From a virus (lineage: Duplodnaviria; Caudoviricetes), in IMG/VR virus record IMGVR_UViG_3300017734_000008, positions 1-53,711 of that record: a stretch of 53,711 bases of DNA. The stretch is one strand, 5' to 3'. Of the stretch, positions 26,411-45,112 are shown one piece after another. Every line of letters begins with the position of its first letter. The first letter of the stretch is position 1. The notes under the pieces are model-generated. The model was not told where the DNA came from. It searched no databases and saw only the letters and a list, made by a program, of their open reading frames with translations. The position numbers and the translations under genes are program-made.

Positions 26411-27840
26411 AGTAGCCAATCTTTGGCTTTGTCACCTAAAGTTTTAGCAGATAGTTGAATCTTCTTCTTAAGAGCTTGGACGATTCGCTCGTCAATTGTG
26501 TCTTTTGCTATAATATCTATATAGACTACATTTTTAGTTTGTCCGATTCTATGAGCACGATCTTCAGATTGTAAACGAACTTCTAAATTATAATTGTTAG
26601 AATAATAAATTACATACTTTGCAGCAGTCAAAGTTAATCCATAACCACCTGTAGTAGGATTACCAACAAAGAATCTACATTTAGAATCTTTTTGAAAACG
26701 GTCAACGGCAACCATTCTATCTTGTTGTGATACTTCACCAAAAATAGATACTACAGATTCGCTTCCATATTTTTCACTTAGCTTTCCTATTATTTCATGT
26801 ATGTTATGAACATATGTTGCCCATATAATAACCTTCTGATCTGTTTCTTCTAATATCTCAAGCAGGGCTTTTAGTTTTTCATTATCAAATTGTATTATTT
26901 CACCATCATCACTTTTACAATACCCATTTGCAACTTGATGTAGTCTAAGTATTTCTGTCAATTGATTATGAACTGATATTGTTTCATTCTCAAATTTAGC
27001 TAATGCCTCTATCTTAAGTCTTTGATAAACTCTTCTTTGCTCGCCTGAAATCTCTATCTCTCTTTTTTGATAAATCTTTTCAGGAATATCTAGACACTCA
27101 TCTTTAGTCAATCTTAATGAAAAATCTTTAAGCTTTTGTTCTAACTCATCCAAATTAGTAAATCCGTCAGGCACCATAATAGCTTCACCTCTTGCTACAT
27201 AGACCTCATCAAAGGTGCAGTATCTATTCCTAAAAGCATAAAAGCTTTTAAATCCTAATAATGCTGGATCAAGGAAAGCACATTGTGTATAAAGATCTAA
27301 TGGAGATTTTGTTACTGGTGATCCTGTTAATATACGCCTCATACGCGCTCGCCATCTTAATGCTAAAATGTTTTTTGTTCGTTTTGCTTTTGGGTTTTTT
27401 ATGGTCGTGGATTCATCAATTACCATTATATTATTTGGCTGGTTAATTAAAAATCTATTACATTCATCCAATCCTTTTTTTGTAGACAACGCTTCTACAT
27501 TGATTAAAAAAAACTTTAATTTATTTTTTTCAGTTAAAAATTTTTTATATTGTTTTGGTTTATCAACTTTCCACGCAAACACAGATCTATCAATCTCTGT
27601 GGGTAAATGTGTGTCTATCTCATTTCGCCAAACTGTATAAACAGATTTTGGGGCAACAATAAGCGCAGCATCTATACGTTTTTTTAAAAATAGGTAACCA
27701 ATGTTGTCTATTGTAGTTTTAGTTTTACCCGTTCCCATCTCCATAAACAATGCATAAGTAGTTCTATCAGCTGATTCGGCTAATGCTTGTCTTTGATGTT
27801 CATAGGGTTTCGTCTTATAGGGGTATTTCCATTCAGCCAT
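26407..27840 (-). CDS. SNF2-family (SF2) helicase
   Basis: MEMGTGKT, DES, LTGSP, QSEDRAHRIGQ; start taken at MAEW. Confidence 0.92.
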   Translation of the reverse strand: MAEWKYPYKTKPYEHQRQALAESADRTTYALFMEMGTGKTKTTIDNIGYLFLKKRIDAALIVAPKSVYTVWRNEIDTHLPTEIDRSVFAWKVDKPKQYKKFLTEKNKLKFFLINVEALSTKKGLDECNRFLINQPNNIMVIDESTTIKNPKAKRTKNILALRWRARMRRILTGSPVTKSPLDLYTQCAFLDPALLGFKSFYAFRNRYCTFDEVYVARGEAIMVPDGFTNLDELEQKLKDFSLRLTKDECLDIPEKIYQKREIEISGEQRRVYQRLKIEALAKFENETISVHNQLTEILRLHQVANGYCKSDDGEIIQFDNEKLKALLEILEETDQKVIIWATYVHNIHEIIGKLSEKYGSESVVSIFGEVSQQDRMVAVDRFQKDSKCRFFVGNPTTGGYGLTLTAAKYVIYYSNNYNLEVRLQSEDRAHRIGQTKNVVYIDIIAKDTIDERIVQALKKKIQLSAKTLGDKAKDWLL

Positions 27841-27867
27841 ATCCAAATAACTTGTATATTTTTCTAT

Positions 27868-27895: not shown

Positions 27896-27906
27896 CCGAA
27901 TTAGAT

Positions 27907-28449
27907 ATGGATATCGAAAAGTTTTCAAATTTAGAAGTTGATACTGCAAGCACGAAATCAATCTCAGATGCTTGTAATGAAATGAAAAAACTTGAAAATG
28001 AAATAGACCAAGCTGAGGAAGTTCTTTCTCTCAAAAAAGCTAAATACAAAGATTATCAGGAACGAAAAATACCAGAGCTTATGCAAGAAGCTGGTGTGAA
28101 CGCAATCAAACTTGCTGATGGTACGCAAGTTGAAGTTAAACCATTTTATGGTGCAAGAATACCTGAAAGTCGTACCGATGAAGCTTTTAGTTGGCTTCGA
28201 GATAAGGGTTTTGGAGATTTAATAAAGAATACAGTCACTACAACTTTTAACAGAGGACAAGACAATCAAGTTGCAGAATTAGTAAAGGTTTGCGAAAACT
28301 TTGGTTTTAAATATTTGCAAAAGCAAAAGGTAGAACCAATGACTTTAAAAGCATTTGCTAAAGAACAAGTTGAAAAAGGAAAGGAACTCCCGTTTGATTT
28401 ATTTGGTATCTATATTGCAAATAAAGCAAAACTAAAAACGAAGGAGTAA
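27907..28449 (+). CDS. conserved phage replication-module protein
   Basis: IPE.M...AF.WLR..G.GDLIKN...VEPMTLKAF. Confidence 0.8.
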   Translation: MDIEKFSNLEVDTASTKSISDACNEMKKLENEIDQAEEVLSLKKAKYKDYQERKIPELMQEAGVNAIKLADGTQVEVKPFYGARIPESRTDEAFSWLRDKGFGDLIKNTVTTTFNRGQDNQVAELVKVCENFGFKYLQKQKVEPMTLKAFAKEQVEKGKELPFDLFGIYIANKAKLKTKE

Positions 28450-32634: not shown

Positions 32635-34502
32635 GTCATCAATTAAATTTCATTTACAATGATAGTGATTGGGTCGCGCCATCAGAGTACCCTGATCTTA
32701 GAGCTGCCGATGAGGTTGCGATAGATTTAGAAACAAAAGATCCTAACTTAAAAACGAAAGGATCTGGATGGGCAACTTTTGATGGAGGTATTGTAGGTTT
32801 TGCTGTAGCTGCACTAGGTCAGCAATGGTATTTTCCAATACAACACGATGCTGGTGGTAATATGGATCTAGCTGTAACAACTGCGTTCATGGTTGATTTA
32901 CTTAAGAGACCTAGCACAAAAATATTCCACAACGCTTCTTATGATGTGGGTTGGTTATTAGCAAACGGTTTTGAAATAAACGGTAAGATTGTAGATACCA
33001 TGGTAGCTGCAGCTTTGATTGATGAAAATAGATGGAGCTTTTCACTTAACGCATGTGCTAAAGATTATTTAGGTGAGATAAAAAATGAAACTTTTTTAAA
33101 AGAGAAAGCAAAAGAATGGGGTATAGATCCTAAACAAGATCTTTGGAAAATGCCTGCAGGGTACGTTGGTTTTTATGCAGAGCAAGACGCTGCACTTACT
33201 TTAAAACTATGGCAGAGATTTAAAGGTGAGATACAAAAACAATCAATCAATGATGTATGGGAGATGGAAATGGAACTTTTACCTATATTAATTGAAATGA
33301 GACGTACAGGGATAAGAGTTGATGAAAGAAAAGCAGCATTACTCAAAAAAGAATTTAGATTAAAAGAAAAAGAAGTTTTACATAAAATTAAAAAAGAGAC
33401 TACCTTAGATGTAGATATTTGGGCTGCAAGAAGTGTAGCACAAGTGTTTGACAGACTAGGTGTAGAGTATCCAAGAACTGCAAAATCTGATGAACCATCT
33501 TTCACTACTAACTGGTTACAGAACTGTGAGCATCCTATAGCTGGCCTTGTAAGAGAAGCAAGAGAAATAAATAAATTTCATTCGACATTTATAGATTCAA
33601 TTCAAAGATATGTACATAAAGGCAGAATACACGCAGAGATAAACCAATTGAGATCAGATCAAGGTGGAACTGTATCGGGCAGATTATCTTACGCGAATCC
33701 TAATCTTCAACAAATACCAGCTAGGAATAAAGAATACGGTAACAAAATAAGGTCTCTATTTCTTCCTGAGGAAGGCAGACAGTGGGGTTCATTTGATTAT
33801 TCACAGCAGGAGCCACGATTGGTAGCACACTACTCAGCGTCTATCGGAGAGCGTCTTGATGGATCTGATGAGTTTATTCAAGCTTATGCAGACGAATCAG
33901 CAGACTTTCATCAAATTGTAGCTGATATGGCTGGAATATCTAGAACTCAAGCGAAGACGATCAATTTGGGTCTTTTCTATGGCATGGGTAAAGCAAAGTT
34001 ATCAAAGGAGTTAGGTATTGATAAGGATAGAGCAGAGATACTTTTAAATAAATATAATTCAAGAGTGCCTTTTGTAAAAAAATTAGCTAGTGCAGTTACA
34101 CAATCAGCAAGTAAGTTTGGTTTTATAAGAACTATAAAAGGTCGTAAATGTAGATTTGATAAATGGGAGCCAGCAACTTTTGGTATGAATCAAGTTATGG
34201 ATTATAATGAAGCTAAAGCTAATTATGGAAACAATATCAGAAGAGCATTTACATACAAGGCCTTAAATAGATTGATACAAGGATCTGCTGCAGACCAAGC
34301 CAAACAAGCTATGATTGATTGTCATAAAGCTGGTCATCTACCATTGTTACAGATACATGATGAATTATGTTTTAGTATTGGATCCGATAAAGAGACCACA
34401 ACCATAAGAGATAAAATGGAAAATGCAGTGGAGAATTTAAAAGTGCCTTTCAAGTGTGATGTAGCTTTAGGTAAATCTTGGGGCGAAGCTAAAGATGAAT
34501 GA
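32631..34502 (+). CDS. polA: family A DNA polymerase with 3'-5' exonuclease
   Basis: DLET / HNASYD / YAEQD exo motifs; DYSQQEPR, KTINLGLFYG, QIHDE. Confidence 0.95.
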   Translation: MSHQLNFIYNDSDWVAPSEYPDLRAADEVAIDLETKDPNLKTKGSGWATFDGGIVGFAVAALGQQWYFPIQHDAGGNMDLAVTTAFMVDLLKRPSTKIFHNASYDVGWLLANGFEINGKIVDTMVAAALIDENRWSFSLNACAKDYLGEIKNETFLKEKAKEWGIDPKQDLWKMPAGYVGFYAEQDAALTLKLWQRFKGEIQKQSINDVWEMEMELLPILIEMRRTGIRVDERKAALLKKEFRLKEKEVLHKIKKETTLDVDIWAARSVAQVFDRLGVEYPRTAKSDEPSFTTNWLQNCEHPIAGLVREAREINKFHSTFIDSIQRYVHKGRIHAEINQLRSDQGGTVSGRLSYANPNLQQIPARNKEYGNKIRSLFLPEEGRQWGSFDYSQQEPRLVAHYSASIGERLDGSDEFIQAYADESADFHQIVADMAGISRTQAKTINLGLFYGMGKAKLSKELGIDKDRAEILLNKYNSRVPFVKKLASAVTQSASKFGFIRTIKGRKCRFDKWEPATFGMNQVMDYNEAKANYGNNIRRAFTYKALNRLIQGSAADQAKQAMIDCHKAGHLPLLQIHDELCFSIGSDKETTTIRDKMENAVENLKVPFKCDVALGKSWGEAKDE

Positions 34503-34728
34503 TAATTATAATGGTGGCACTGCGTATAGGGCCATGTTAAAATTATTTAGAGAAGCTAAATTAGATATGGAAAATAAAAATAAAAATACACCTTGCCTAA
34601 GATGTAAAGACACGCGTGAGGTTTGGGTATGGAAAGATACTGCTGAATCTGAAAAGATTAAAGTAGACTGCCCACTGTGTAGCAAACAACGGCCACCGCA
34701 AGAACTAAGAGATCTAGGAATTATTTAA
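34495..34728 (+). CDS. small Zn-finger protein
   Basis: CLRC...CPLC. Confidence 0.65.
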   Translation: MNDNYNGGTAYRAMLKLFREAKLDMENKNKNTPCLRCKDTREVWVWKDTAESEKIKVDCPLCSKQRPPQELRDLGII

Positions 34729-34901
34729 GTTTATTTTTTTTTAACAGAACCTGATCTTTTATAGTCTTTCCATTTACAATTGAATGTTTTGAGTCCTGTT
34801 TCAGTAAGAATTTTAATAATGTGGCCTCGTTCGGTTGATTCAACATAGTGCCTAATATAGTTAGGAATATCAGCATACGAGTCTCCTTTGTTTGATGGCA
34901 T
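34725..34901 (-). CDS. 58-aa hypothetical protein, not in ORF track
   Basis: Hand translation MPSNKGDSY... Confidence 0.55.
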
Positions 34902-34952
34902 AGATAGCCTGTCTTATAAATGATTTTTTGATAGGTTGCTAGTATTTTTTTA

Positions 34953-35135
34953 CTAGCTATTTAGAAGACTTTCAGATGCATCAATAACGCTTTGTTCATT
35001 GATTCTTTTCTTTAAGTCTTTAATCTTTATATCAATCCACTTCATATCAGTAGTTACTCTACCCTGTTGTAACGCCTGACTGGCCCACTTGGACTCCAAC
35101 TGAAGCTTCTCCGATATTAGCATTTGTAGTGCCAT
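34953..35135 (-). CDS. hypothetical protein
   Basis: SD GAGGAG; LESKWA...MKWID. Confidence 0.75.
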   Translation of the reverse strand: MALQMLISEKLQLESKWASQALQQGRVTTDMKWIDIKIKDLKKRINEQSVIDASESLLNS

Positions 35136-35319
35136 TTTTTAGCTCCTCATATGTGATGAACACAAATTTTTTTGTATAAAGAGGTTCATCGTTTGCTTTG
35201 ATTTCACCATTGTGCAGTTTTTTACCGAACTGTTGTAAAGCCAAAACATCGTTGTCAGCCTTAATTATCCCATCATAATGCTTACCTTCGTATCTCATCT
35301 GAACGCGATAACTTTTCAT
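35059..35319 (-). CDS. hypothetical protein
   Basis: TATACT 5 nt before ATG (leaderless-like). Confidence 0.7.
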   Translation of the reverse strand: MKSYRVQMRYEGKHYDGIIKADNDVLALQQFGKKLHNGEIKANDEPLYTKKFVFITYEELKNGTTNANIGEASVGVQVGQSGVTTG

Positions 35320-35356
35320 AAGATAGTATATAACAAAATATGGTAGGAATACAACC

Positions 35357-35569
35357 CTATGTGCCTACAGCTGGTGTACAAGTATATTTAGTGGCTAGTC
35401 TATTAGATTCTACTATATCTTGTGGCACTGAAGTAATTAAGGCTTTAGATTCATCGAAAGCTTTAACTGTACATTCTGCCCAAGAATTAAAAGTATCGGG
35501 ATGGGTAACACCTGGAGCGCAAGTGAAGTCCATGAAAGAACAAACATAAATAGTCAAAATAAATTTCAT
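35357..35569 (-). CDS. small Cys-containing secreted-type protein (MKFILTIYVCS...)
   Basis: C-terminal part of track ORF; four Cys; hydrophobic start. Confidence 0.65.
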   Translation of the reverse strand: MKFILTIYVCSFMDFTCAPGVTHPDTFNSWAECTVKAFDESKALITSVPQDIVESNRLATKYTCTPAVGT

Positions 35570-35639
35570 AATATCCCATTTAGTCCTTGCATTTAATATT
35601 GAAATAAGTATAAATTCAAGGAAACAATAGGAGTATATC

Positions 35640-35951
35640 ATGGAAGACAATGACAACAAACCAAGTACACTTGAAAAGGTGGTAGAAAACTTAACGCACC
35701 CTACTACTAACATCAGAGAAGTTAATTTTAAGAATAAACCTGATGACATTGTACAAACACTAGGTGCAGACACCGATGCTATATTGATTACTTTTGAAAG
35801 AGATAAAGGTGAACTAAAACTTTATCACAATGGAGTCGAAATAGATAAAGCTGTATTTGCTAGAGTATTAAAAGCAGAGACAAGCTACTATGCTGTTTTT
35901 GATTTTATACAAGATAAGTTTAAATCATGGAGGGACGCATGGGTGAATTAA
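35640..35951 (+). CDS. hypothetical protein
   Basis: SD AGGAG; upstream TTGCAT-16-TATAAA promoter. Confidence 0.75.
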   Translation: MEDNDNKPSTLEKVVENLTHPTTNIREVNFKNKPDDIVQTLGADTDAILITFERDKGELKLYHNGVEIDKAVFARVLKAETSYYAVFDFIQDKFKSWRDAWVN

Positions 35952-36217
35952 GACTTAAAAGTAGCTCTAAAGCCTTTGCTAAATTTGTAAAGGACGTAGA
36001 TGATATTTTATCAAAAGTACATACACATGACAAAGAAGGTAACAAATGTGAATGCACATCTGAAAGCTTTGTGGATAGCCGAGATAGGTTAGTTAATGTA
36101 GAACTTGACTTTAAAGATGGACATCCAGCAAAGATACTTAATATGTGGGTTGCAGCAGATTTTGTTGATGATGAAATAGAAAGTCTTGAAGCAATCAATG
36201 AAAAGAGGGATCAATGA
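35927..36217 (+). CDS. hypothetical protein
   Basis: ORF track; coupled to neighbours. Confidence 0.65.
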   Translation: MEGRMGELRLKSSSKAFAKFVKDVDDILSKVHTHDKEGNKCECTSESFVDSRDRLVNVELDFKDGHPAKILNMWVAADFVDDEIESLEAINEKRDQ

Positions 36218-36321
36218 AATATTTAGGAAGATTATTACTTTTATTAGCAATATTAATAATACCTCCTAAAATTTTATTTATTATTATAGGAGTATTAGCC
36301 TATACAATTTATAACTCATAA
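36214..36321 (+). CDS. 35-aa membrane hairpin peptide
   Basis: MKYLGRLLLLLAILIIPPKILFIIIGVLAYTIYNS; ATGA coupling. Confidence 0.65.
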   Translation: MKYLGRLLLLLAILIIPPKILFIIIGVLAYTIYNS

Positions 36322-36330
36322 GGAGAACCA

Positions 36331-36492
36331 ATGAGAATAGTAACAATTCTAGCATTATTTTTATTTCTAACGGGTTGTGGTTACACAATGAAGTTAGGTA
36401 AAAAATGTACACCAGGACATGACGAGTGGTCATATGTTTGGTTTGTAGAGAAGGATGGTAACAATGTCAGCAGAAAAAATTGTACCAAGTAA
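36331..36492 (+). CDS. 53-aa lipoprotein, not in ORF track
   Basis: SD AAGGAG; signal peptide + lipobox LTGC. Confidence 0.75.
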   Translation: MRIVTILALFLFLTGCGYTMKLGKKCTPGHDEWSYVWFVEKDGNNVSRKNCTK

Positions 36493-36661
36493 AGATTGGC
36501 GCGAAAGAAGAATCGCTGCCATTAATAGACAAACAAACAAATTTAATGGTATGAGATCTGTGGCCGAATACTATGCAGATGAACACCTACAAATTTGTCA
36601 AAGTAAATGCAAAACTAAAGCGGAGTATAAAATATGGACACGAGAAAATGGAAAAGTGTAG
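36455..36661 (+). CDS. hypothetical protein
   Basis: ORF track; WRERRIAAINR. Confidence 0.65.
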   Translation: MVTMSAEKIVPSKDWRERRIAAINRQTNKFNGMRSVAEYYADEHLQICQSKCKTKAEYKIWTRENGKV

Positions 36662-36849
36662 CTGTAGATATAGAAAACTATAAAATTATTACAGCTATGG
36701 GTGAGAAAGGTTTTAGAAGACCAGGGGCAATGATAGCAAAACTTGTTGACTCTGAACTTAAAACCATTGCTAAGAAAACAGGTAAATCAATTGATAAATT
36801 GAGAGCTGATCTACTTGTACAAGGAGGCCGTAAATTAAATGGACGATAG
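36634..36849 (+). CDS. small ribbon-helix-helix-like DNA-binding protein
   Basis: KWKSVAV strand followed by two helices. Confidence 0.55.
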   Translation: MDTRKWKSVAVDIENYKIITAMGEKGFRRPGAMIAKLVDSELKTIAKKTGKSIDKLRADLLVQGGRKLNGR

Positions 36850-37033
36850 TAGTAATAGAACAACTAAGAACGAAAAGATAATAATTGAGATAAATGAGTC
36901 TACTAAAGGTAAGACCCACGCCATGGCAATAGAACTAGCGCTTACATTAAGCAAACAGTTAGAACCGTGGAAGAGGCATGTAAAGGGGCTCACAATAAAG
37001 AAAAACAATAAGATTTTCAAAAAAGTATCTTAA
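36839..37033 (+). CDS. hypothetical protein
   Basis: SD AGGAGG; ORF track. Confidence 0.6.
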   Translation: MDDSSNRTTKNEKIIIEINESTKGKTHAMAIELALTLSKQLEPWKRHVKGLTIKKNNKIFKKVS

Positions 37034-37196
37034 TCAAGATATTGTGTGGCAGGTGTAAGAAAACACTTGATCTTGTGCCTGCCATTTGTTACAGATCATC
37101 TGTATTCCTCATAACCTAATGAAAAGTAGAGGTTTCAATCTACTTAGATTACCGAACAGCGAACAACCTTTTTTATTAACTTAAAAGGAGATTGTT

Positions 37197-37445
37197 TTGG
37201 CAGAAACGAAGCGAAAGCCATTAGAAGAAGTTTTAGATCAGGGTTTAAATAAGTTAGTGATGTCATGTCCTAATAAAAAAACCTATGATGAAATTACTTC
37301 AATAATGTTTCAGCTTTATAATGGTAATGATTACGGTATGGGGAACTTTAGCTTACAGTTTTTAAGTAAAATTGACCAAGCTTGGCGAAAAGGACGAAAA
37401 CAAACTGCAAAAAAGTTGGGATTGTCTTTAGTTAAGAATGTGTAG
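37197..37445 (+). CDS. hypothetical protein
   Basis: SD AAGGAG + TTG. Confidence 0.7.
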   Translation: MAETKRKPLEEVLDQGLNKLVMSCPNKKTYDEITSIMFQLYNGNDYGMGNFSLQFLSKIDQAWRKGRKQTAKKLGLSLVKNV

Positions 37446-37492
37446 CCACCAGTTTCCATATCCATATCATTGTCTTTCCAAAACTGGTGGTT

Positions 37493-37675
37493 ATGCAGAT
37501 GAGTTTATTTGATCATAGTCTAAGTGACGTAAATGAAATGAGTGGTATTGATCGAACTCATTTTATGAATGATATTTATTTAGATTGGCAAGCCTCCAAG
37601 AGTCTCCGACAAAAGAAAATGGAGACTTTTTATCTTGAGTTACTCAAACAACTTATTAAAGATTATGGGCACTAA
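37493..37675 (+). CDS. hypothetical protein
   Basis: ORF track; ATG lies in hairpin arm. Confidence 0.6.
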   Translation: MQMSLFDHSLSDVNEMSGIDRTHFMNDIYLDWQASKSLRQKKMETFYLELLKQLIKDYGH

Positions 37676-38072
37676 TATTGCGACAGAAATATTAAAAACT
37701 CATTTGAGATCTGAACATAGACTTTATCAAGCTATAGTTGTTCAAGCGTTTGAAGATTGTTTATATACTTTAGGTGGTAAGAATGAAGCTTATAATAAAA
37801 AAGAAGCTCATGAATGGTTTATGGCTAATGGTAAAGATTTTAGACAGATCTGTGATCTAGCTAATTTAGATCCCGATCATGTACACGGTAGGTACAAGTG
37901 GTGTTTAAACAATAAAGTGATTGTTTTTACAGAAATTCAATGTTATTGGATTGAGTATAAAAATGAATATAAGAAATATAGGGCCGTGGGCACTAAAGAA
38001 GAAAGAAAAACCATCAAAGAAAGAATTGACCAAATAAGGTTTAAACTTAAATTGAAGGATAAAAGAAAATGA
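37665..38072 (+). CDS. conserved hypothetical protein
   Basis: RL..AI..QA.ED...A..WF...DF..IC.LA.LDP. Confidence 0.75.
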   Translation: MGTNIATEILKTHLRSEHRLYQAIVVQAFEDCLYTLGGKNEAYNKKEAHEWFMANGKDFRQICDLANLDPDHVHGRYKWCLNNKVIVFTEIQCYWIEYKNEYKKYRAVGTKEERKTIKERIDQIRFKLKLKDKRK

Positions 38073-38269
38073 AAATTAAAATTTTAAAAGCATTAGAAGA
38101 TAAATACCATGCTAAAATTAGTGAGGCCGAGGCTACTTTAGAAATATACCTTACTAAATCTGTAGGAATTGGAGAGCACCCGCAACATATAGATGAAGCT
38201 GATAAACTTGTTGATACGATAGCGCAGAATGAAGAGAAGTTAGGTGTTATACATAGACTAAAACAATGA
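38069..38269 (+). CDS. conserved hypothetical protein (VGIGEHP family)
   Basis: VGIGEHP motif common in marine phages. Confidence 0.8.
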   Translation: MKIKILKALEDKYHAKISEAEATLEIYLTKSVGIGEHPQHIDEADKLVDTIAQNEEKLGVIHRLKQ

Positions 38270-38477
38270 AAGAATTAGTCATAGGTCTACTTATTTTAGT
38301 GAGTGGAGAAAAAATTGAGACAAGACATATTACTATTTACGAATCATGTTATACGTGGTATCAGAAGAACGTAGAAATGAAAGAGATAAAGACTACCTTT
38401 TTAGCCGAAGATCTTATCATTTGTATGAAGGCCAACGAGTCGTTGGTTTTATTTGTAGTGATAAAGAACCTAAATGA
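38266..38477 (+). pseudogene. small protein with apparent -1 frameshift at T-run 38398-38402
   Basis: -1 frame reads SRRSYHLYEGQRVVGFICSDKEPK* and ends in ATGA coupling. Confidence 0.45.
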
Positions 38478-38584
38478 GTATTAGAAAAAAAATTTGTGCT
38501 AAATTAAGATTAAACTGGATGAGAACCCTCTACATCGGTTTGGCCTGTTTGTGGTCTTTTTTAATTTATGTCCCCTTTAAATAA
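38474..38584 (+). CDS. 36-aa basic/TM peptide
   Basis: Hand translation MSIRKKICAK... Confidence 0.5.
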   Translation: MSIRKKICAKLRLNWMRTLYIGLACLWSFLIYVPFK

Positions 38585-38729
38585 AATTAACATTGCAGCT
38601 GTAAATTGGGAAAGAACGAAAGATCCGAAATATAAGAAAGAGTGGTATATTTTAATTAAAAGGTGGTCTGAGTCTATCCGAAAAAAACCCAAGCAAATAT
38701 TAGAGTACAAGTGGCCGCTGTTAAAATAA
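38568..38729 (+). CDS. 53-aa hypothetical protein (TKDPKYKKEWY)
   Basis: Hand translation. Confidence 0.6.
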   Translation: MSPLNKINIAAVNWERTKDPKYKKEWYILIKRWSESIRKKPKQILEYKWPLLK

Positions 38730-38759
38730 AAAAAGTAAAATCATCGAAATTCATAAGGT

Positions 38760-38861
38760 TAACTAAGATAGGGTAACATGTAATAACCTTTTCTAGGGGA
38801 AAAGATGTCGAGAGAGCATGCTACCCTATCGACCATAGTTATGTCATTGTTCCTCCGATCT
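38760..38861 (-). ncRNA. candidate small RNA 2
   Basis: Promoter TTGTCC-17-TATACT (38896-38868, minus); 14-bp stem with G-U valid on minus strand; no ORF. Confidence 0.5.
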
Positions 38862-38897
38862 GTCTACAGTATATATGGAAAACGGATAACGGACAAC

Positions 38898-38960
38898 GAA
38901 AAAAGGGCGCTTCAGTCTCCCTCCACGCCCTAAAGATAACAAGAAATGATGTTATATAAC
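38898..38960 (-). ncRNA. candidate small RNA 1 (about 62 nt)
   Basis: Promoter TTGATT-17-TACAAT (38995-38967, minus); ends in AGGGCG/CGCCCT hairpin + U-run. Confidence 0.55.
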
Positions 38961-39064
38961 GCTATAATTGTATAGTATTCGTTAATCTAAATCAACGAAG
39001 TAAAAAATCTACTATATAGATTATCTAGACCCCTATGCACTTTTTTTAGTCAGAGGTCAAAAGT

Positions 39065-39169
39065 GGTGTATCTGGTGTATCTGATGATTATAATTGTTGT
39101 ATATCAACACTTATAATCGATTTTAAGGTGTATCCGTAGGTGTATCCGTGGTGTATCTGGATACACCAC
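39065..39169. repeat. iteron-like GGTGTATCY array with palindromes (origin or packaging site candidate)
   Basis: Five direct copies (39065, 39074, 39127, 39139, 39150) plus one inverted (39159). Confidence 0.8.
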
Positions 39170-39318
39170 AATATCAATATTTCCTTGCGTAGTGCAAAAA
39201 TGTTAGTTTGGGTAACCTAGTCGGGGGTTAAAATAATCTATATAATAGAATTTGCGGTGGGCGGCAAATCTCAAGACATTGCTGAAGATGATCTTGATAA
39301 CGCCCGCCCCGTAAAATT

Positions 39319-39666
39319 ATGGTAATAGCTAAAACAATTATAAAAGCAGCAATCAAGAGAGCTAAGAAAAAGGCCGCTGCAACTAAAGGCAGGAAGCTTA
39401 CTAAAAGCTTGGATAAATACAATATTCATGCTGGTGGAGGTAAAGGCCCTGTACCTATTAAGAAACAATCATTACAAAAAAGCACATTAAGTGGTAGAAC
39501 TTATTCTATAAGTACCAATAAACTAAGCGCTAAAACAATGCTTGATATAGGTGGTGGTTATGGAACTACATCTACAGCAAGGTTTCAAGATGCAGTTAAG
39601 GACTTGATTGGTTTAGATAAGCTAAGTATAAGAAAAGCATTCAAAAGAGGGAAAGGAAAAAAATAA
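39319..39666 (+). CDS. very basic hypothetical protein
   Basis: Lys-rich, amphipathic N-terminus; TAATG coupling. Confidence 0.7.
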   Translation: MVIAKTIIKAAIKRAKKKAAATKGRKLTKSLDKYNIHAGGGKGPVPIKKQSLQKSTLSGRTYSISTNKLSAKTMLDIGGGYGTTSTARFQDAVKDLIGLDKLSIRKAFKRGKGKK

Positions 39667-39938
39667 TGAAACAAAAAAAGTTATTACTAGGTGGACTTCT
39701 ATCTGCAGGTATAAAATATGCTGCTAAAAAGTATATGAAACGAAGCGGCAGAAATATATCTAAATTAACTAAAATGCAGCCAAAACTCTCAAAAAACAAA
39801 AGAGCTGGTGCTAAACATGATATGGCAACCGCTATACAAATGCAAGGAACCAAAAGTTTTCTGAACCCTAAGGGCATGACAATGAAAGATGTAAATAAAT
39901 TACAATCTTATAAAAATAGACTACCAAAGAATTACTAA
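39666..39938 (+). CDS. basic protein with KKLLLGG leader
   Basis: TAATG coupling at both ends. Confidence 0.7.
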   Translation: MKQKKLLLGGLLSAGIKYAAKKYMKRSGRNISKLTKMQPKLSKNKRAGAKHDMATAIQMQGTKSFLNPKGMTMKDVNKLQSYKNRLPKNY

Positions 39939-40462
39939 TGGCATTAAAAGCAAAAGCACTTAGAACTATAGATGATTTGACTCCCAAACAAAGAAAGTTT
40001 GTAGATATACTTGTAGCGAACTGGGGTGAAATCACAAAAGCCGAGGCCTGTAAAAGAGCTGGTTATGAAGCAAAGAATGATAAGAATTTTTCCGATATTG
40101 GAAGTAGACTAACTTTAAGACGACACAATCCACACGTAGTAAAATATATGGATCAACAGCTTGAAAAAGCTAAGGCCAAATATGAAAAGGATAGACTGCG
40201 TAGATACAAAAGATTAGAAAAATATGCTGACAATGCATTTGAAGATAAACAATATGCGTCAGCTATAAATGCTGAGTATAGATCAGGACAATTAGCTGGT
40301 TTATATGTAGATAAAAAAGAAGTAAAAGTATCAGGATTGGAGGGTATGTCACGTGCAGAGCTTGAGAAGAAACTCACAGAGCTTTCAAACAAGATCGATG
40401 GTTTCAACGCCAAAACGATCGAAGTTGAGCCAGAGACAAAAAAATTATCTAGTAAGTCATAA
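39938..40462 (+). CDS. terS: terminase small subunit
   Basis: LTPKQRKFV...A..RAGY HTH; GQLAGLYVDKKEV. Confidence 0.8.
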   Translation: MALKAKALRTIDDLTPKQRKFVDILVANWGEITKAEACKRAGYEAKNDKNFSDIGSRLTLRRHNPHVVKYMDQQLEKAKAKYEKDRLRRYKRLEKYADNAFEDKQYASAINAEYRSGQLAGLYVDKKEVKVSGLEGMSRAELEKKLTELSNKIDGFNAKTIEVEPETKKLSSKS

Positions 40463-40533
40463 TTGGACTTCCTTCATTACTGTTTTTAACGAGGTGCATA
40501 ACGCTGATCTCAACGTAAACTTAGGCAAAATTA

Positions 40534-40830
40534 ATGTTAAGACGGAAGAAAAGTAAATACAAACAAGCTCTCGTAGGTAATAAAAAATATTATTACTACA
40601 GAATTTATTGGTTAGATCCCTGCGGAGATGCTGGGCATGCGGAGGCTAGTGAGGTAAAAAAACTAAAGCCAGCCAAGATGATAACTCATGCATTTATTTT
40701 TGAGAAAAACCATAAATATGTTTGGACATTTGCTTCTTATGACGAAGAAGCTGCTGTATTTTCCGACAGGAATTGTCTACTTAGATCTAGTGTTTATAAG
40801 TTTGAAAGAGTATTAAACCGATCTGAATAA
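40534..40830 (+). CDS. conserved hypothetical protein
   Basis: I.W.D..GD.G...TFASYD. Confidence 0.7.
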   Translation: MLRRKKSKYKQALVGNKKYYYYRIYWLDPCGDAGHAEASEVKKLKPAKMITHAFIFEKNHKYVWTFASYDEEAAVFSDRNCLLRSSVYKFERVLNRSE

Positions 40831-40833
40831 TTT

Positions 40834-41322
40834 ATGAAGAAGCGTGAGTCTAAACTCTGGCAAAGAATAAAAAAACACATAACAAAACCACATTTAATTC
40901 GTGTAGAATCTAATACTATCAATGGTATTCCTGACATAAATGGTTGTTGGAGTGGCAAAGAATTTTGGATTGAACTTAAATCGGACAAGGTAGGATATCC
41001 TAAGCTATCTAAATGGCAAATTAGTTGGATCAATAAACGAATCAAACACGGTGGTATAGTAATTATCTGCAATGAGACCCTCTCGCAGAGAGTTTTCCAA
41101 CTGTACAGACCGTTGTCCGCGATTACTGATGCTCGTTTACTGAAACCTCGGTGCTCGTTCTCATTTCCCGTACAATGGCCATCGGTGCAGGATGCCCTCT
41201 GGGATCTCCTGCAGCTGGATCCTGAAGCTCGTTCTCGTTCTCGTGACAAAGATCAACGAATCGGGGAAGAAATAATAAGGAACTCAGGCAGCATCACAAG
41301 TGAGGACTTGTCTGGTATCTGA
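40834..41322 (+). CDS. VRR-NUC / Holliday-junction resolvase-like nuclease
   Basis: ES.LW...RVE...GIPD...WIELK...Q..W. Confidence 0.8.
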   Translation: MKKRESKLWQRIKKHITKPHLIRVESNTINGIPDINGCWSGKEFWIELKSDKVGYPKLSKWQISWINKRIKHGGIVIICNETLSQRVFQLYRPLSAITDARLLKPRCSFSFPVQWPSVQDALWDLLQLDPEARSRSRDKDQRIGEEIIRNSGSITSEDLSGI

Positions 41323-41589
41323 TTCTCGTTTATTCTCGTTGTCGGGGGCCAACTTTTCTATCATTGTTTTCCGTTGAGCCCCCTTCAGGAGCTGGTGCAG
41401 CACACTCCGTGTTCTCGTTTATAGAAGCTCGTTCTCGTTTTAAGAAAGGTATATCAATGTGTACCTGCAGCTACAGCCTCAGGACACAGGTACGGAAGCT
41501 GGGTGGACAAAAAGTTCCTGAACTTCCTACTTGACTTATCTCCCATCTGGTCTTATGTACACATCTGGATTAACAACGAAAGGATAACA

Positions 41590-41907
41590 ATGAAAACACA
41601 TGTAATTAAGGATGACGGTACGGTGACCGTGGTAGAAGGAAAGATAGAAGATCTAGATGCGATGCAGAAGCTCGTAAAGGGATCTATTGAAATAGTAAAC
41701 GCAGCAATGCCTGCAGCATCTCCTGAGCTGCCAGGAGGAAAAGATCTTAAAGAGATGATAGTGAATGAAGAAGGTCTCTTCAACACTGCGTTCAAAACGA
41801 ATCACAAAGCTAGGAAGCTTATAGCTCAAGGACTGGACGTGCAGCTGGAGAACATTCAGGACATCCGTGGTGATGTCTTCGTGACTGACGGATGGCGGAT
41901 CGCGTGA
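41590..41907 (+). CDS. DUF3846-like protein
   Basis: MQKLVKG.IE...IVNEEG...N..A...I.GDV; SD AAGGA. Confidence 0.75.
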   Translation: MKTHVIKDDGTVTVVEGKIEDLDAMQKLVKGSIEIVNAAMPAASPELPGGKDLKEMIVNEEGLFNTAFKTNHKARKLIAQGLDVQLENIQDIRGDVFVTDGWRIA

Positions 41908-41999
41908 TGTCGTTCATTTTAATTCTCGCCCTGCTCTGGCCGAAGATTACCATGCCAGCACTGGGGCTCCTGGTGGTTACGCTGGTGGCAGTCTTGTGA
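41907..41999 (+). CDS. 30-aa membrane hairpin peptide
   Basis: MSFILILALLWPKITMPALGLLVVTLVAVL; TGATG coupling. Confidence 0.55.
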   Translation: MSFILILALLWPKITMPALGLLVVTLVAVL

Positions 42000-42114
42000 A
42001 GCTCTCGCTCGTTCTCGTTGGAGTGCGCCTTGTTTAGAACTATTCTAAAGTGGATAGCATCACACGGGGGGCGGGCGTGGCAGTTTTTAGGTAAGACTTG
42101 TGGAATTTTTTTAT

Positions 42115-42143
42115 TTGACTTATAGGTGGGATATGATAAGACA
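42115..42143 (+). promoter_or_regulatory. repeated early promoter, copy 1
   Basis: TTGACT-16-TAAGAC containing GTGGGATATGATAAGACA. Confidence 0.65.
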
Positions 42144-42172
42144 ATGGAGAAAGATAACAAAAGGAGAAAAAT

Positions 42173-42589
42173 ATGGGACTAGATCAATTCGCACACATAA
42201 GAGACAAACAAAGTGGGCAGATGAAGCGACCAGACTTTGAAAAAGTCTATTCAGATAAATACGAGCCAACAATAGATGGTTTCGTTTGGAGAAAGCACTC
42301 ACGACTTCAACAGTTTATGCAAAATATTTGGGCAGAACAAAATCCAAATAGTGAAGAGGCAATGAATGGAGAAGATGAACTGACGCTGAATAAAGATATT
42401 ATAACCAACTTACGTAAAGAGATAGATGGCAACTATCATAATTCGTTTTGTAGTGGTGGCTTTTTTTGGGGACATCAGTTTCAAGAAGAAGCCGTCAAAG
42501 AATACTCCAAGCAAGATGTTCAGTTCTGTGATTGGGCTTTGGCACAAATCGAAAAGGGCGAAACTGTCGTCTATAATTGCTCGTGGTAA
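42173..42589 (+). CDS. conserved phage early protein (MGLDQ...WRKH family)
   Basis: MGLDQ, WRKH, GFFWG, C-terminal Y.CSW. Confidence 0.85.
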   Translation: MGLDQFAHIRDKQSGQMKRPDFEKVYSDKYEPTIDGFVWRKHSRLQQFMQNIWAEQNPNSEEAMNGEDELTLNKDIITNLRKEIDGNYHNSFCSGGFFWGHQFQEEAVKEYSKQDVQFCDWALAQIEKGETVVYNCSW

Positions 42590-42638
42590 ATCTCTCGTTG
42601 TTGCTTATCTCGTTGTTTAAAAAGAAAAGGGGGTACAA

Positions 42639-42737
42639 ATGATGGGGGGACTAATTTGGTTTTCGCCATTAATATTTATCTACATATTATTAGTGATGGA
42701 TATTATTAGTTTAGGTTCTGTTTTTAGTTTGTTCTAG
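42639..42737 (+). CDS. 32-aa hydrophobic peptide
   Basis: SD AGGGGG; MMGGLIWFSPLIFIYILLVM... Confidence 0.5.
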   Translation: MMGGLIWFSPLIFIYILLVMDIISLGSVFSLF

Positions 42738-42793
42738 CTTTGTCTGTGGAAAACCCATTATGAACAGGCAGACCCATAATGGACACAAAGTTG

Positions 42794-42822
42794 TTGAAGT
42801 TAATGTGGGATATGATAAGACA
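42794..42822 (+). promoter_or_regulatory. repeated early promoter, copy 2
   Basis: TTGAAG-16-TAAGAC; same 18-mer as copy 1. Confidence 0.65.
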
Positions 42823-42852
42823 GGCTATTACTAACACTAACAAAGGAAAACA

Positions 42853-43179
42853 ATGAGTAATGCAATAAGAAAGCTAAAGGCAGATGAGAAAAAAATCATC
42901 TTGGCTTATGCTACAATTAAACTGCAAGCAAATCGTTTATCTAAAGAGTTAGATACAATGAAACAAAACTTGGTTGATGTGTTTGAGAGAACCAAACAAA
43001 ATCTAGTTATTGTTCAAGATGAGAATGGTTGTAGTTTTGGAGTGCAGAAAATCAAACGTAAAAGAAAGAAGTTTGAAACTGCTAACTTTAAAATAAAACA
43101 TAATGATTTATTCAATCAGTTCTGTACTGAAATTGAATATAATGAGTTTAAAGCTATTGGGGATAGTAATGACAAATAG
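42853..43179 (+). CDS. hypothetical protein
   Basis: SD AAGGA; ORF track. Confidence 0.75.
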   Translation: MSNAIRKLKADEKKIILAYATIKLQANRLSKELDTMKQNLVDVFERTKQNLVIVQDENGCSFGVQKIKRKRKKFETANFKIKHNDLFNQFCTEIEYNEFKAIGDSNDK

Positions 43180-43414
43180 TTTGATGAACATATCTAAAGT
43201 ATTAGCCGAGCAATCGGCTAATGCTCAACTTACTGACAACGTAAAGTTAGAACCTGACGCAGTTAGTAAATTAAATTATGAAGTTATGTATAAAATGTTA
43301 GAGGGCGAAGTAGAAAAGCTAATACTAGAAAATAATGGCAACCCTTTAATCGATAACTTTAAAACTAGGATTGTAAGAAAATTTAGTTACTTAATAGAAA
43401 AGTTAAGTAGCTAA
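43169..43414 (+). CDS. hypothetical protein
   Basis: ATG 43169 after GGGGA. Confidence 0.65.
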   Translation: MTNSLMNISKVLAEQSANAQLTDNVKLEPDAVSKLNYEVMYKMLEGEVEKLILENNGNPLIDNFKTRIVRKFSYLIEKLSS

Positions 43415-43422
43415 CTACAACC

Positions 43423-43460
43423 AACACCAATAGCCCGTAAGGGCTATTGGTGTTCTCTTA
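43423..43460 (+). terminator. intrinsic terminator
   Basis: Perfect 14-bp stem AACACCAATAGCCC-GTAA-GGGCTATTGGTGTT after operon end. Confidence 0.75.
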
Positions 43461-43627
43461 TAGAAGGCTCAGCAAAACCAACAACCTGCTTTTCTTAATT
43501 TTTTTACGCTGGTCGCGTTGATATACAAGGTACTTGTATATTGTAAGAGTTTATAGCAAGTCGAATAGAAGTAGTGTATGCTGAAACGGTATGGTATAAA
43601 GGGACCCAAGAAAACAGAATTTTTAAG

Positions 43628-45112
43628 ATGAGTACATTAGATCAATTAACAGATGATGAATTAAGAACCTTAATTCTTAAGAAGCAGATCGAATATATAA
43701 AATTATGTCAGGATGACTTTTTATTATTCGTGAAAGCTATGTGGCCTGATTTTATTTATAGGAACACAGAGGACCCTGAGAAATGGGGGCACCATCAAAT
43801 AATAGCAAATGAGTTTCAAGACATAGCTTCAAAAGAATCTAAACGTCTTATTGTGAATATGCCACCAAGGCATACTAAATCAGAGTTCGCTTCATATTTA
43901 TTTCCTGCTTGGATGATTGGTAAGAATCCTAAGATGAAACTTATGCAAGTATCACACAATGCTGAACTTGCTTCGCGGTTCGGTAGCAAAGTTAGAAACT
44001 TAATGGAAACCGAAGACTACAAAAGTATCTTCGGAGATGTTAGTCTAAGAGAAGATAGTAAGGCTAAAGGACGTTGGGAGACCAATCATGGTGGAGAATA
44101 TTTTGCAGCGGGGGTAGGCGGTTCAATCACAGGACGAGGGGCGGACTTACTTATTATTGATGACCCACATACTGAACAAGACTCAATGTCTGACTCTGCT
44201 ATGGAAAGAGCTTTTGAATGGTATTCATCAGGACCCCGACAACGTTTACAACCAGGAGGCTCAATCGTAGTTGTAATGACAAGATGGGCAACGGATGATT
44301 TAACAGGGAGGCTCATCAAATCACAATCTGAACCTAAATCAGATTCGTGGCGCGTTATTAATTTTCCAGCAATACTTCCCTCAGGTAATCCTGTATGGCC
44401 TGAATACTGGCCACTCGATGAATTAGAAAAAGTTAAAGCATCGGTGACAACGAAAAACTGGAATGCACAATACATGCAGGACCCAACGTCAGAGGAAGGT
44501 GCAATTATTAAAAGAGATTGGTGGCAACCGTGGAACGAAGAACGGATACCGACACTTAAACATGTGATGCAAAGTTATGATACTGCGTATTCTAAAAAAG
44601 AATCTGCAGATTACTCAGCTATTACAACGTGGGGAATATTTCAACCTGCAGAAGGTTATGAAGATTGTTTAATTTTATTAGATGCAATAAAAGGAAGGTT
44701 CGACTTTCCTGATCTTAAGAATTTAGCACTAGAGCAATATCAATACTGGCAACCTGAAACAACTATTGTTGAAGCTAAAGCTACAGGACAACCTTTGATT
44801 CATGAATTAAGACGAGCAGGTATACCTGTAATAGATTATGTTCCTGCAAGAGGTAGAGATAAGCATACTAGAATTAACTCAGTAGCCCCTATATTTGAGT
44901 CTGGTATGGTTTTTGCCCCAACAGATGAGAAATTTGCACAAGATGTTATTGAAGAAGTAGCTGCTTTTCCTCACGGTCAATACGATGACTATGTTGACTC
45001 TATGACCCAAGCAGTGATAAGATTCAGGGAAGGTGGATTTGTTACAACTTATTCTGATGCAATAGACGAACCTAATTTTAAGATTGAAAAAGATTATAGA
45101 TACTATGGATAG
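43628..45112 (+). CDS. terL: terminase large subunit
   Basis: MPPRHTKS Walker A, LLIIDD Walker B, MTRW, SYDTA, DDYVDS. Confidence 0.95.
   Translation: MSTLDQLTDDELRTLILKKQIEYIKLCQDDFLLFVKAMWPDFIYRNTEDPEKWGHHQIIANEFQDIASKESKRLIVNMPPRHTKSEFASYLFPAWMIGKNPKMKLMQVSHNAELASRFGSKVRNLMETEDYKSIFGDVSLREDSKAKGRWETNHGGEYFAAGVGGSITGRGADLLIIDDPHTEQDSMSDSAMERAFEWYSSGPRQRLQPGGSIVVVMTRWATDDLTGRLIKSQSEPKSDSWRVINFPAILPSGNPVWPEYWPLDELEKVKASVTTKNWNAQYMQDPTSEEGAIIKRDWWQPWNEERIPTLKHVMQSYDTAYSKKESADYSAITTWGIFQPAEGYEDCLILLDAIKGRFDFPDLKNLALEQYQYWQPETTIVEAKATGQPLIHELRRAGIPVIDYVPARGRDKHTRINSVAPIFESGMVFAPTDEKFAQDVIEEVAAFPHGQYDDYVDSMTQAVIRFREGGFVTTYSDAIDEPNFKIEKDYRYYG

Follow-up and report, generated by a model that had tools for sequence, protein, structure and literature searches.

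Stem-loops with loops complementary to translation start regions in an uncultured relative of Pelagibacter phage HTVC023P: probable anti-start-site regulatory RNAs

The DNA analysed here, called the window below, is the whole of the one-contig virus record IMGVR_UViG_3300017734_000008 (53,711 bases; 34.7% G+C), whose long open reading frames (ORFs) lie nearly all on the + strand. It carries three stem-loops, termed H1, H2 and H3, which by their sequences are probably anti-start-site regulatory RNA loops. We lean, with modest confidence, towards H1 and H3, and by analogy H2, being regulatory RNA stem-loops of the phage, with loops that pair with the start regions of particular phage messenger RNAs (mRNAs). 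An initial annotation had described them as a family of hairpins whose loops are complementary to a Shine-Dalgarno sequence and AUG. All three are present at the positions that it gave, H1 and H2 fold on the strands that it named, and the two complementarities that it reported, of 12 nucleotides (nt) between H3 and gene 42853 and of 11 nt between H1 and gene 27907, are both exact. The idea of a homologous family was not upheld: the hairpins share only what any start-complementary sequence shares, and from their sequences they are a functional class rather than a family, mutually non-homologous. The stem-loops and their proposed targets are as follows (bp, base pairs; aa, amino acids):

37439-37497, + strand: H1, a 17-bp stem with a 25-nt loop (37456-37480) and a conserved loop core (37458-37468)
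38767-38830, minus strand: H2, a 13-14-bp stem with a 36-nt loop (38781-38816)
41344-41383, + strand: H3, a GC-rich stem of 10 bp that includes one bulged A and closes a 19-nt loop (41354-41372); its strand is deduced from that of the proposed target
27904-27914, + strand: proposed H1 target 1, around the start codon of gene 27907 (DUF7307, Pam3 gp33-like; Pfam match)
27832-27848, minus strand: proposed H1 target 2, the start region of a divergent helicase gene, with a 9-nt exact loop complement at 27837-27845
42845-42856, + strand: proposed H3 target, from a Shine-Dalgarno-like GGA through the ATGA of gene 42853 (108 aa, no family)

By its sequence the source phage is an uncultured relative of the HTVC023P type. 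Its large terminase is 70% identical to the counterpart in Pelagibacter phage HTVC023P; PHROG and Pfam scans identified a portal, a primase, a DNA polymerase, two helicases and an exonuclease, and a scan for tRNAs and tmRNA found none. Among deposited phages there were zero DNA-level matches to positions 36500-42000 or 41250-43200, and 37197-39000 gave a single match of 209 nt, in coding sequence. With the studied region unmatched at the DNA level, cultured relatives were therefore unusable for comparison. The relatives compared come from IMG/VR: 77 loci around H1 and H2, 63 around H3 and 66 around gene 27907. Two related records were also fetched, G002 (group A) and G001 (group B), one complete and the other lacking its last 15 bases. 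A covariance model of H1 (R1), built to search more distant records, detected H1 homologues in four of five of them, which gave groups C and D with new stems and new loops. Five further records (G011-G015) yielded zero matches to R1, a miss that is uninformative because these records are fragments, 47-67% complete. Loop rows L068 and L062 (in one comparison also L045, L034 and L004) were excluded from the loop/target comparisons. Within the single genome the loop matches are not significant; the support comes from the comparison of relatives.

H1 and two divergent start regions

H1 is an RNA-level element, selected as a + strand helix with compensatory changes. RNAfold gives it -23.2 kcal/mol on the + strand (z score -5.2), and none of 200 shuffled sequences was equally stable. 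It is present in 74 of the 74 loci that extend far enough upstream, among 75 loci listed (L023 is too short). From the 44 distinct sequences RNAalifold recovered 13 pairs, four of them with changes on both sides and 99.7% of the cells paired; slid structures pair 27-52% of cells. The covariation score is 0.301 versus 0.211 after shuffling, a value attained in none of 500 trials. Many of the G:U pairs in the stem are valid on the + strand only and would be A·C on the other. Here as in H2, such pairs and the compensatory changes bear out the strand that had been assigned initially.

The reported match to gene 27907 involves the upstream 11 nt of the loop, its conserved core among relatives. The 3' part of the loop ('CATTGT plus pyrimidine') is variable in close relatives and absent in distant ones. 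The CAT and pyrimidine tract that the initial annotation took as the motif common to the three loops is conserved in the 5' half of the H2 loop; in H1 it belongs to the variable part of the loop.

Genome-wide, no non-self antisense match of the H1 loop is longer than the 11-nt complement at 27904-27914. Gene 27907 is the first gene rightward of a divergent promoter region, and its ATG stands 11 nt past a TATAAA hexamer (10-12 nt past a -10-like hexamer in groups A and B, by eye). No Shine-Dalgarno sequence is visible at this start in either group (by eye). With the start so close behind a -10-like hexamer and no Shine-Dalgarno sequence, the mRNA would be nearly leaderless. The divergent helicase probably begins at the ATG at 27840-27838 (minus strand), also close behind a -10-like hexamer, so that both H1 target mRNAs appear to be nearly leaderless. 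The proposal that the loops are complementary to a Shine-Dalgarno sequence plus AUG describes H3, but H1 appears to be directed at two near-leaderless start codons instead.

At gene 27907 the 11-bp pairing with the H1 core is retained in 13 of 13 contig pairs. In the group A record, too, no other site matches the H1 loop over as great a length as the 27907-type start. The group B record has a different loop with three 11-nt matches, two of which coincide with start codons, one belonging to the 27907 homologue and the other to the divergent helicase gene. Shuffled loops did as well on the 27907-type start in 2 of 1000 trials for group A and in 0 of 1000 for group B. On the helicase side the best duplex within a stretch of 110-130 nt lies on the helicase start codon in all five representatives (A, B, C twice, D), and loop and target change in concert: the target GATATGG (A, D) goes with the loop sequence CCATATC, and the target GATGTGG (B, C) with CACAT. 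Shuffle tests on this side gave 24, 0, 11-32 and 11 per 1000 for groups A, B, C and D, respectively. In the group B record nearly the entire H1 loop is taken up by a duplex with the helicase start region, of 18 bp and one bulge (-26.6 kcal/mol, equalled in 0 of 2000 shuffles), which beats the next non-self start by 10 kcal/mol among the 285 ORF starts scored.

The position of H1 in the transcript suggests another role, namely that it serves chiefly in translational coupling. The stem would join the stop codon of the upstream ORF to a downstream start that lacks a Shine-Dalgarno sequence, ribosomes would restart there, and the loop would be conserved for some other reason. The TAG of the upstream 82-aa ORF (37443-37445) does lie inside the 5' arm, and the conserved ATG of the next ORF (37499) follows 2 nt past the 3' arm, a layout common to groups A, B and C. 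The first ATG of that ORF (37493) is unconserved, being ATA in L049 and GTA in L016. Ahead of the start at 37499 no Shine-Dalgarno sequence is visible and no purine-rich motif is conserved (by eye). Coupling leaves unaccounted for, however, both the conservation of the loop and its fit to two start codons, and in the group D copy (L216) the 5' base of the stem lacks a stop codon (by eye). We hold it rather improbable as the chief function, although coupling and anti-start functions are compatible and not exclusive. Translational bypassing, of which T4 gene 60 is the model case, was tried for H1 and rejected: the codon before the TAG and the landing codons agree only where stem pairing forces them to, and the landing frame fails in L072 (by eye, in the H1 alignment).

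If H1 is an anti-start-site loop, its stem would present the loop single-stranded, and the loop would base-pair with the start region of the target, most likely blocking ribosome binding. It would do so from within the rightward mRNA of the replication genes, with two overlapping anti-start sites in the one loop. The first would fit the 5' end of the gene 27907 mRNA, the first gene of the same operon, 9.5 kilobases (kb) upstream; the second would fit the helicase mRNA, which is transcribed divergently, at its 5' end. Such an arrangement would provide delayed negative feedback on the two genes flanking the divergent promoter.

H3 and the start of gene 42853

H3 is a single copy in the genome, located 22 nt past the stop codon of a VRR-NUC-like gene, with gene 42853 on the same strand 1.5 kb downstream. 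Its fold is about equally stable on both strands (-21.0 kcal/mol on +, -20.4 on minus), and both arms have the same sequence at 55 of 55 loci, while the flanks vary strongly. The exact 12-nt complement at 42845-42856 is the longest non-self antisense match of the loop genome-wide.

Co-variation of loop and target in related phages had been named initially as a check on the proposal, and for H3 it is found: the loop and the start of gene 42853 change together across related contigs. The loop occurs in three types, and in 32 of 32 distinct combinations (44 sequences) it has 9-13 nt of Watson-Crick complementarity to the start of the 42853 homologue on the same contig. The types use different registers on the target, from -8 to +4 in type i, -5 to +5 in type ii and -18 to -4 in type iii. 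Type iii loops are T-rich and without CAT. They occur at four loci, and precisely these four of the 44 carry a changed target, with 15 bp formed in three of the four. Own pairs are stronger than cross pairs (-15.9 versus -7.9, and -15.6 versus -8.8 to -12.6). With the target fixed beforehand, shuffled loops equalled the real ones 1-14 times per 1000 for type ii, 2-9 per 1000 for type iii (3 loci) and 0 per 1000 for type ii_b.

One further feature bears on how H3 would be made:

41308-41336, + strand: promoter-like TTGTCT-17-TATTCT, a putative site that stops 7 nt short of the first G of H3

In the sequence upstream of H3, GGACTTG and TAT(T/C)CT are conserved amid variable surroundings (by eye), and the site falls under the threshold of the consensus scan. 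Because this -35/-10-like pair ends so shortly before the hairpin, H3 may stand at the very start of a transcript of its own. Its loop would mask the Shine-Dalgarno sequence and AUG of gene 42853. Between H3 and gene 42853, the relatives L081 and L130 each have a long perfect hairpin with a T run behind it, the run being shorter in one of the two (by eye), and gene 42853 has a promoter-like site of its own. Action of H3 in trans is therefore likelier than action within one molecule.

Several other peculiarities mark the neighbourhood of H3. It lies in a G+C-rich island (41000-42100; 0.45-0.53 versus 0.35 for the genome), which also contains the remainder of the VRR-NUC-like ORF (40834-41322) beyond residues 2-80, to which the family match is limited. 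The 6-nt motif CTCGTT has 13 of its 16 + strand copies within 41000-42700, all in one orientation (cluster 41132-42609). An exact 18-nt direct repeat (42126-42143 and 42806-42823), each copy after a TTGA-type hexamer, stands about 30 nt before genes 42173 and 42853 and looks like a shared promoter type. In the more distant relatives L134-L137, some 300 nt upstream of a DUF3846 gene, a different stem with a different 25-nt loop occupies the position of H3.

H3 raises the question whether the DNA itself might be what is recognised. The matching segments could be inverted repeats bound by one regulator of double-stranded DNA (the divergent promoter with the H1 loop, the start of gene 42853 with the H3 loop), or they could be kept alike by recombination. 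H3 offers no RNA-specific evidence, the start of gene 27907 is nearly palindromic (by eye), so that a dimeric protein could read either strand, and the one-orientation motif cluster near H3 suggests protein sites. We nevertheless regard DNA-level action as improbable. In the stems of H1 and H2 many G:U pairs can form on just one strand, which denotes selection at the RNA level. The registers used by the H3 loop types, ranging from -18..-4 to -5..+5, fit base pairing better than one protein at one site, and several loop-target pairs are maintained by G:U wobble.

H2, opposing evidence and a structural alternative

The stem of H2 belongs to the minus strand, where its fold energy is -25.8 kcal/mol (z score -4.2) versus -23.2 on the + strand. 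From 23 distinct sequences 13 pairs were recovered, seven of them with changes on both sides, at a consensus of -18.2 kcal/mol and with 98.0% of cells paired. The covariation score of 0.398 versus 0.216 after shuffling was attained in none of 500 trials, and slid structures pair 35-47%. On the + strand the stem was not recovered in the alignment fold (-4.95); recovered on the minus strand only, the H2 RNA therefore lies antisense to the genes around it. It sits in a stretch of 590 nt without a long ORF. The CAT and pyrimidine tract of its loop makes up the conserved 5' half, and the 3' half is variable. Two features precede it:

38868-38896, minus strand: promoter-like TTGTCC-17-TATACT upstream of H2, a putative site from a consensus scan, with hexamers conserved in most aligned relatives (by eye)
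38839-38856, minus strand: GGAGGA and a two-codon mini-ORF (ATG ACA TAA), between the promoter-like site and H2 and 9 nt before H2

In the aligned relatives the mini-ORF keeps its start and stop, and the second codon varies (ACA; ACG in L076; AAA in L004; by eye). It is reminiscent of the 'bar' minigenes of phage lambda. H2 is possibly a separate minus-strand RNA, with a regulatory role suggested by analogy with H1 and H3 and, possibly, an mRNA of the host as its target.

Two side observations concern the surroundings of H2. At 38905-38930 (minus strand), just upstream of the promoter-like site of H2, there is a GC stem of 5-6 bp with compensatory variants in relatives and a conserved 16-nt loop, followed by six T; this element is terminator-like for leftward transcription. 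At 39064-39175, within the 590 nt that are free of long ORFs, a 10-nt unit (GGTGTATC plus two bases) is repeated five or six times, the last repeats making up a palindrome, and these repeats may be iterons of an origin or sites for a regulator.

The initial annotation had itself raised the converse view of the hairpins, according to which the loops are genuine Shine-Dalgarno plus ATG starts of small ORFs on the opposite strand. Such ORFs do occur in the window, of 44 aa from 37465 (minus), 42 aa from 38805 (+) and about 26 aa from 41367 (minus), but their frames are unconserved. The H1 minus frame ends after seven codons in relatives that bear GCTTAG (e.g. L046, L048, L050). The + frame opposite H2 has ATA for ATG in L018, L023 and L039 and an early stop with indels in L010 and L021 (by eye). 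The type iii loops of H3 lack the ATG altogether. In addition, the G:U pairs fix the RNAs of H1 and H2 on the strands that read CAT, not ATG. We consider this view largely refuted and very improbable. The loss of the 42-aa frame also speaks against H2 as the cis-antisense partner of a type I toxin-antitoxin pair.

A number of results weigh against the anti-start-site reading. The initial annotation had cautioned that matches so short could be chance, and within one genome this caution was justified: shuffled loops reach an equal duplex with at least one of the 74 start regions in 105 of 500 trials for H1 and in 165 of 500 for H3. Antisense matches of at least 11 nt to start regions number 41 genome-wide against 32.8 expected, and a genome-wide scan of duplex energies fails to single out targets for the loops. 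For H2, a comparison of the loop with all ORF starts of the window and of G002 gave no shared strong target. The reading fares well for H3 and for H1 with the helicase and moderately for H1 with gene 27907, but it has no phage target for H2. At the 27907-type start, loops of groups C (178-460 per 1000) and D (113 per 1000) are not better than shuffled ones. In the cross-group energy matrices own pairs have no advantage at this start, and on the helicase side the group B target pairs best with every loop. Since the H1 core and the 27907 start are both conserved, some of their agreement may be inherited and not reselected, and the related contigs are phylogenetically non-independent throughout. 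The stem of H3 is invariant and therefore shows no structural co-variation and gives no direct evidence of strand. At L130, the fourth locus with a type iii loop, pairing with the target is poor (-9.9 kcal/mol, equalled in 241 of 1000 shuffles). BLAST detected neither H2 nor H3 in the group B record, in which the 42853-type start also has no complementary hairpin on the + strand. As to expression, five marine RNA runs contain 8-14% of the sampled words. Four of these runs gave 28 short contigs, some of them over H1, H2 and H3, at a depth of 2-4 and without strand or end information; the contigs are mostly from oligo-dT marine libraries, in which DNA carry-over is possible.

Part of this evidence would be expected if the hairpins were structural or protein-binding RNA elements, such as mRNA stabilisers, RNase processing sites or sites for a phage RNA-binding protein, their complementarity to starts being incidental or inherited. 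H3 and a hairpin at 39245-39311 (see below) would then be cassettes made of a promoter and a 5' stem-loop. Such cassettes would resemble the promoter-early stem-loop (PeSL) cassettes of T4-type phages. The invariance of the H3 stem in all loci is what sequence-specific recognition would produce, promoter-like hexamers stand just upstream of both H3 and the 39245-39311 hairpin (by eye), and the weak within-genome statistics and the want of a phage target for H2 agree with this as well. What such a role leaves unexplained is that three H3 loop types all fit the start region of one gene, that the best H1 duplex lies on the helicase start codon in every representative, with matching substitutions, and that the group B loop is nearly completely complementary to the helicase start. 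We judge a purely structural role unlikely, though the least so of the alternatives considered. H1, H2 and H3 are not among the four terminator-like sites found in 34500-44000; their loops measure 19-36 nt and no T run follows them.

Returning to the anti-start-site reading, a wider proposal can be built on it, which we put forward tentatively and consider possible but doubtful. A widespread marine clade related to HTVC023P would time its gene expression partly through a small network of anti-start-site RNA loops and not through proteins. The mRNA-embedded H1, with its stem bracketing a stop and a start, would shut off two near-leaderless replication genes through their 5'-terminal AUG; H3 would control a gene beside the packaging module; and H2 may target the host.

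Known systems and neighbouring hairpins

The initial annotation had likened the hairpins to the C4 RNA of phage P1, a likeness that extends to the mechanism only. The c4 RNA comes from a region that precedes its target within one operon, both in the same orientation, and is released from a longer precursor transcript by RNase P. The placement of H3 relative to gene 42853, and that of H1 relative to the first gene of its own operon, resemble this layout. In P1 and P7, loop sequences of c4 are complementary to the region of the ribosome binding site of the ant mRNA, as stated in the consulted portion of a 2025 review of phage small RNAs (PMC12197685). The present loops are likewise complementary to start regions, H3 over 12 nt and in 32 of 32 combinations, H1 on the starts of gene 27907 and the helicase. 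A search of the whole window against Rfam at gathering thresholds gave zero matches, C4 included, and a search of 36900-43500 up to E = 5 gave only weak RnaG and ceN53 hits, neither of them on a hairpin. The proposed targets also differ from that of c4, being a DUF7307 protein, a helicase of the SNF2 type (phrog_62) and the 108-aa protein without family, and not an antirepressor; none of the 30 ORFs scanned gave an antirepressor hit. Furthermore, unlike c4, H1 is embedded between two ORFs of an mRNA, and its targets look leaderless, one of them being on the other strand. Finally, c4 operates within the immunity system of temperate phages, whereas the present phage is related to HTVC023P-type phages, of which HTVC027P is called lytic in the sections consulted of PMC12753301.

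Other RNAs are comparable in single respects. The C-rich loop RNAs of Firmicutes (RsaE/RoxS, the hairpins of RNAIII) have pyrimidine-rich loops that mimic the anti-Shine-Dalgarno sequence and mask translation starts. RNAs of the RsaE/RoxS type are host RNAs with many targets and defined seeds, whereas the loops described here fit one or two phage genes and include an anti-start CAT. IS10 RNA-OUT and plasmid CopA are loop-first antisense RNAs, in which the hairpin loop makes the first contact. These two, and the sar RNA of phage P22, are transcribed opposite their targets and fully complementary to them; H1 and H3, in contrast, are encoded 9.5 and 1.5 kb away from theirs and share 9-18 nt with them, and H2, unlike RNAs of the sar type, is antisense to nothing that is conserved as coding. 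The sar RNA itself prevents translation initiation by pairing at the start region of an mRNA (PMC12197685, same portion).

The HTVC023P-type phages are described as the most abundant known group of phages infecting SAR11, which dominates the bacteria of the surface ocean (PMC12753301, in the sections consulted). The consulted text of that paper, which presents the transcriptome of HTVC027P, has nothing on non-coding RNA, and the consulted part of a study of uncultivated genomes of the group (PMC9599517) makes no mention of hairpins, noncoding or antisense RNA, promoters, or intergenic or terminal repeat elements. Cyanophage RNAs are mentioned in the 2025 review, with no pelagiphage example found in the portion consulted (PMC12197685). 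In the pelagiphage literature searched, as represented by main texts without supplements, no account of such elements was found. If the loops act as proposed, they would be the first post-transcriptional regulators proposed for the HTVC023P-type group, and H1 would illustrate how a loop within a coding transcript can exert antisense control over leaderless mRNAs. The loops would also supply a simple rule for detecting further cases in metagenomes, namely to look for conserved hairpins in which the loop and a start region of the same contig co-vary.

Four additional elements were noted in the vicinity. The hairpin at 39245-39311 (+ strand) has clear compensatory changes in 17 relatives and begins a few nt past a conserved TATAAT (by eye). 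With its 3' arm it occupies positions -19 to -8 relative to gene 39319, the place expected for a Shine-Dalgarno sequence, and it looks like a structure of the 5' untranslated region. The C-rich 3' arm of this hairpin (39300-39310) is exactly complementary to an 11-nt G-rich stretch at 42068-42078, a match that is unusual for a genome of 35% G+C; the equivalent stretch is altered in L081. At 37046-37085 (+ strand), within the intergenic region 37034-37196, a GC-rich stem of 9 bp carries a 22-nt loop, and this was the most stable large-loop hairpin in a crude scan. Lastly, a perfect 14-bp hairpin with a 4-nt loop (43423-43454) separates gene 43103 from the terminase gene; relatives form a hairpin of different sequence there (by eye), and the element is likely a transcription terminator.

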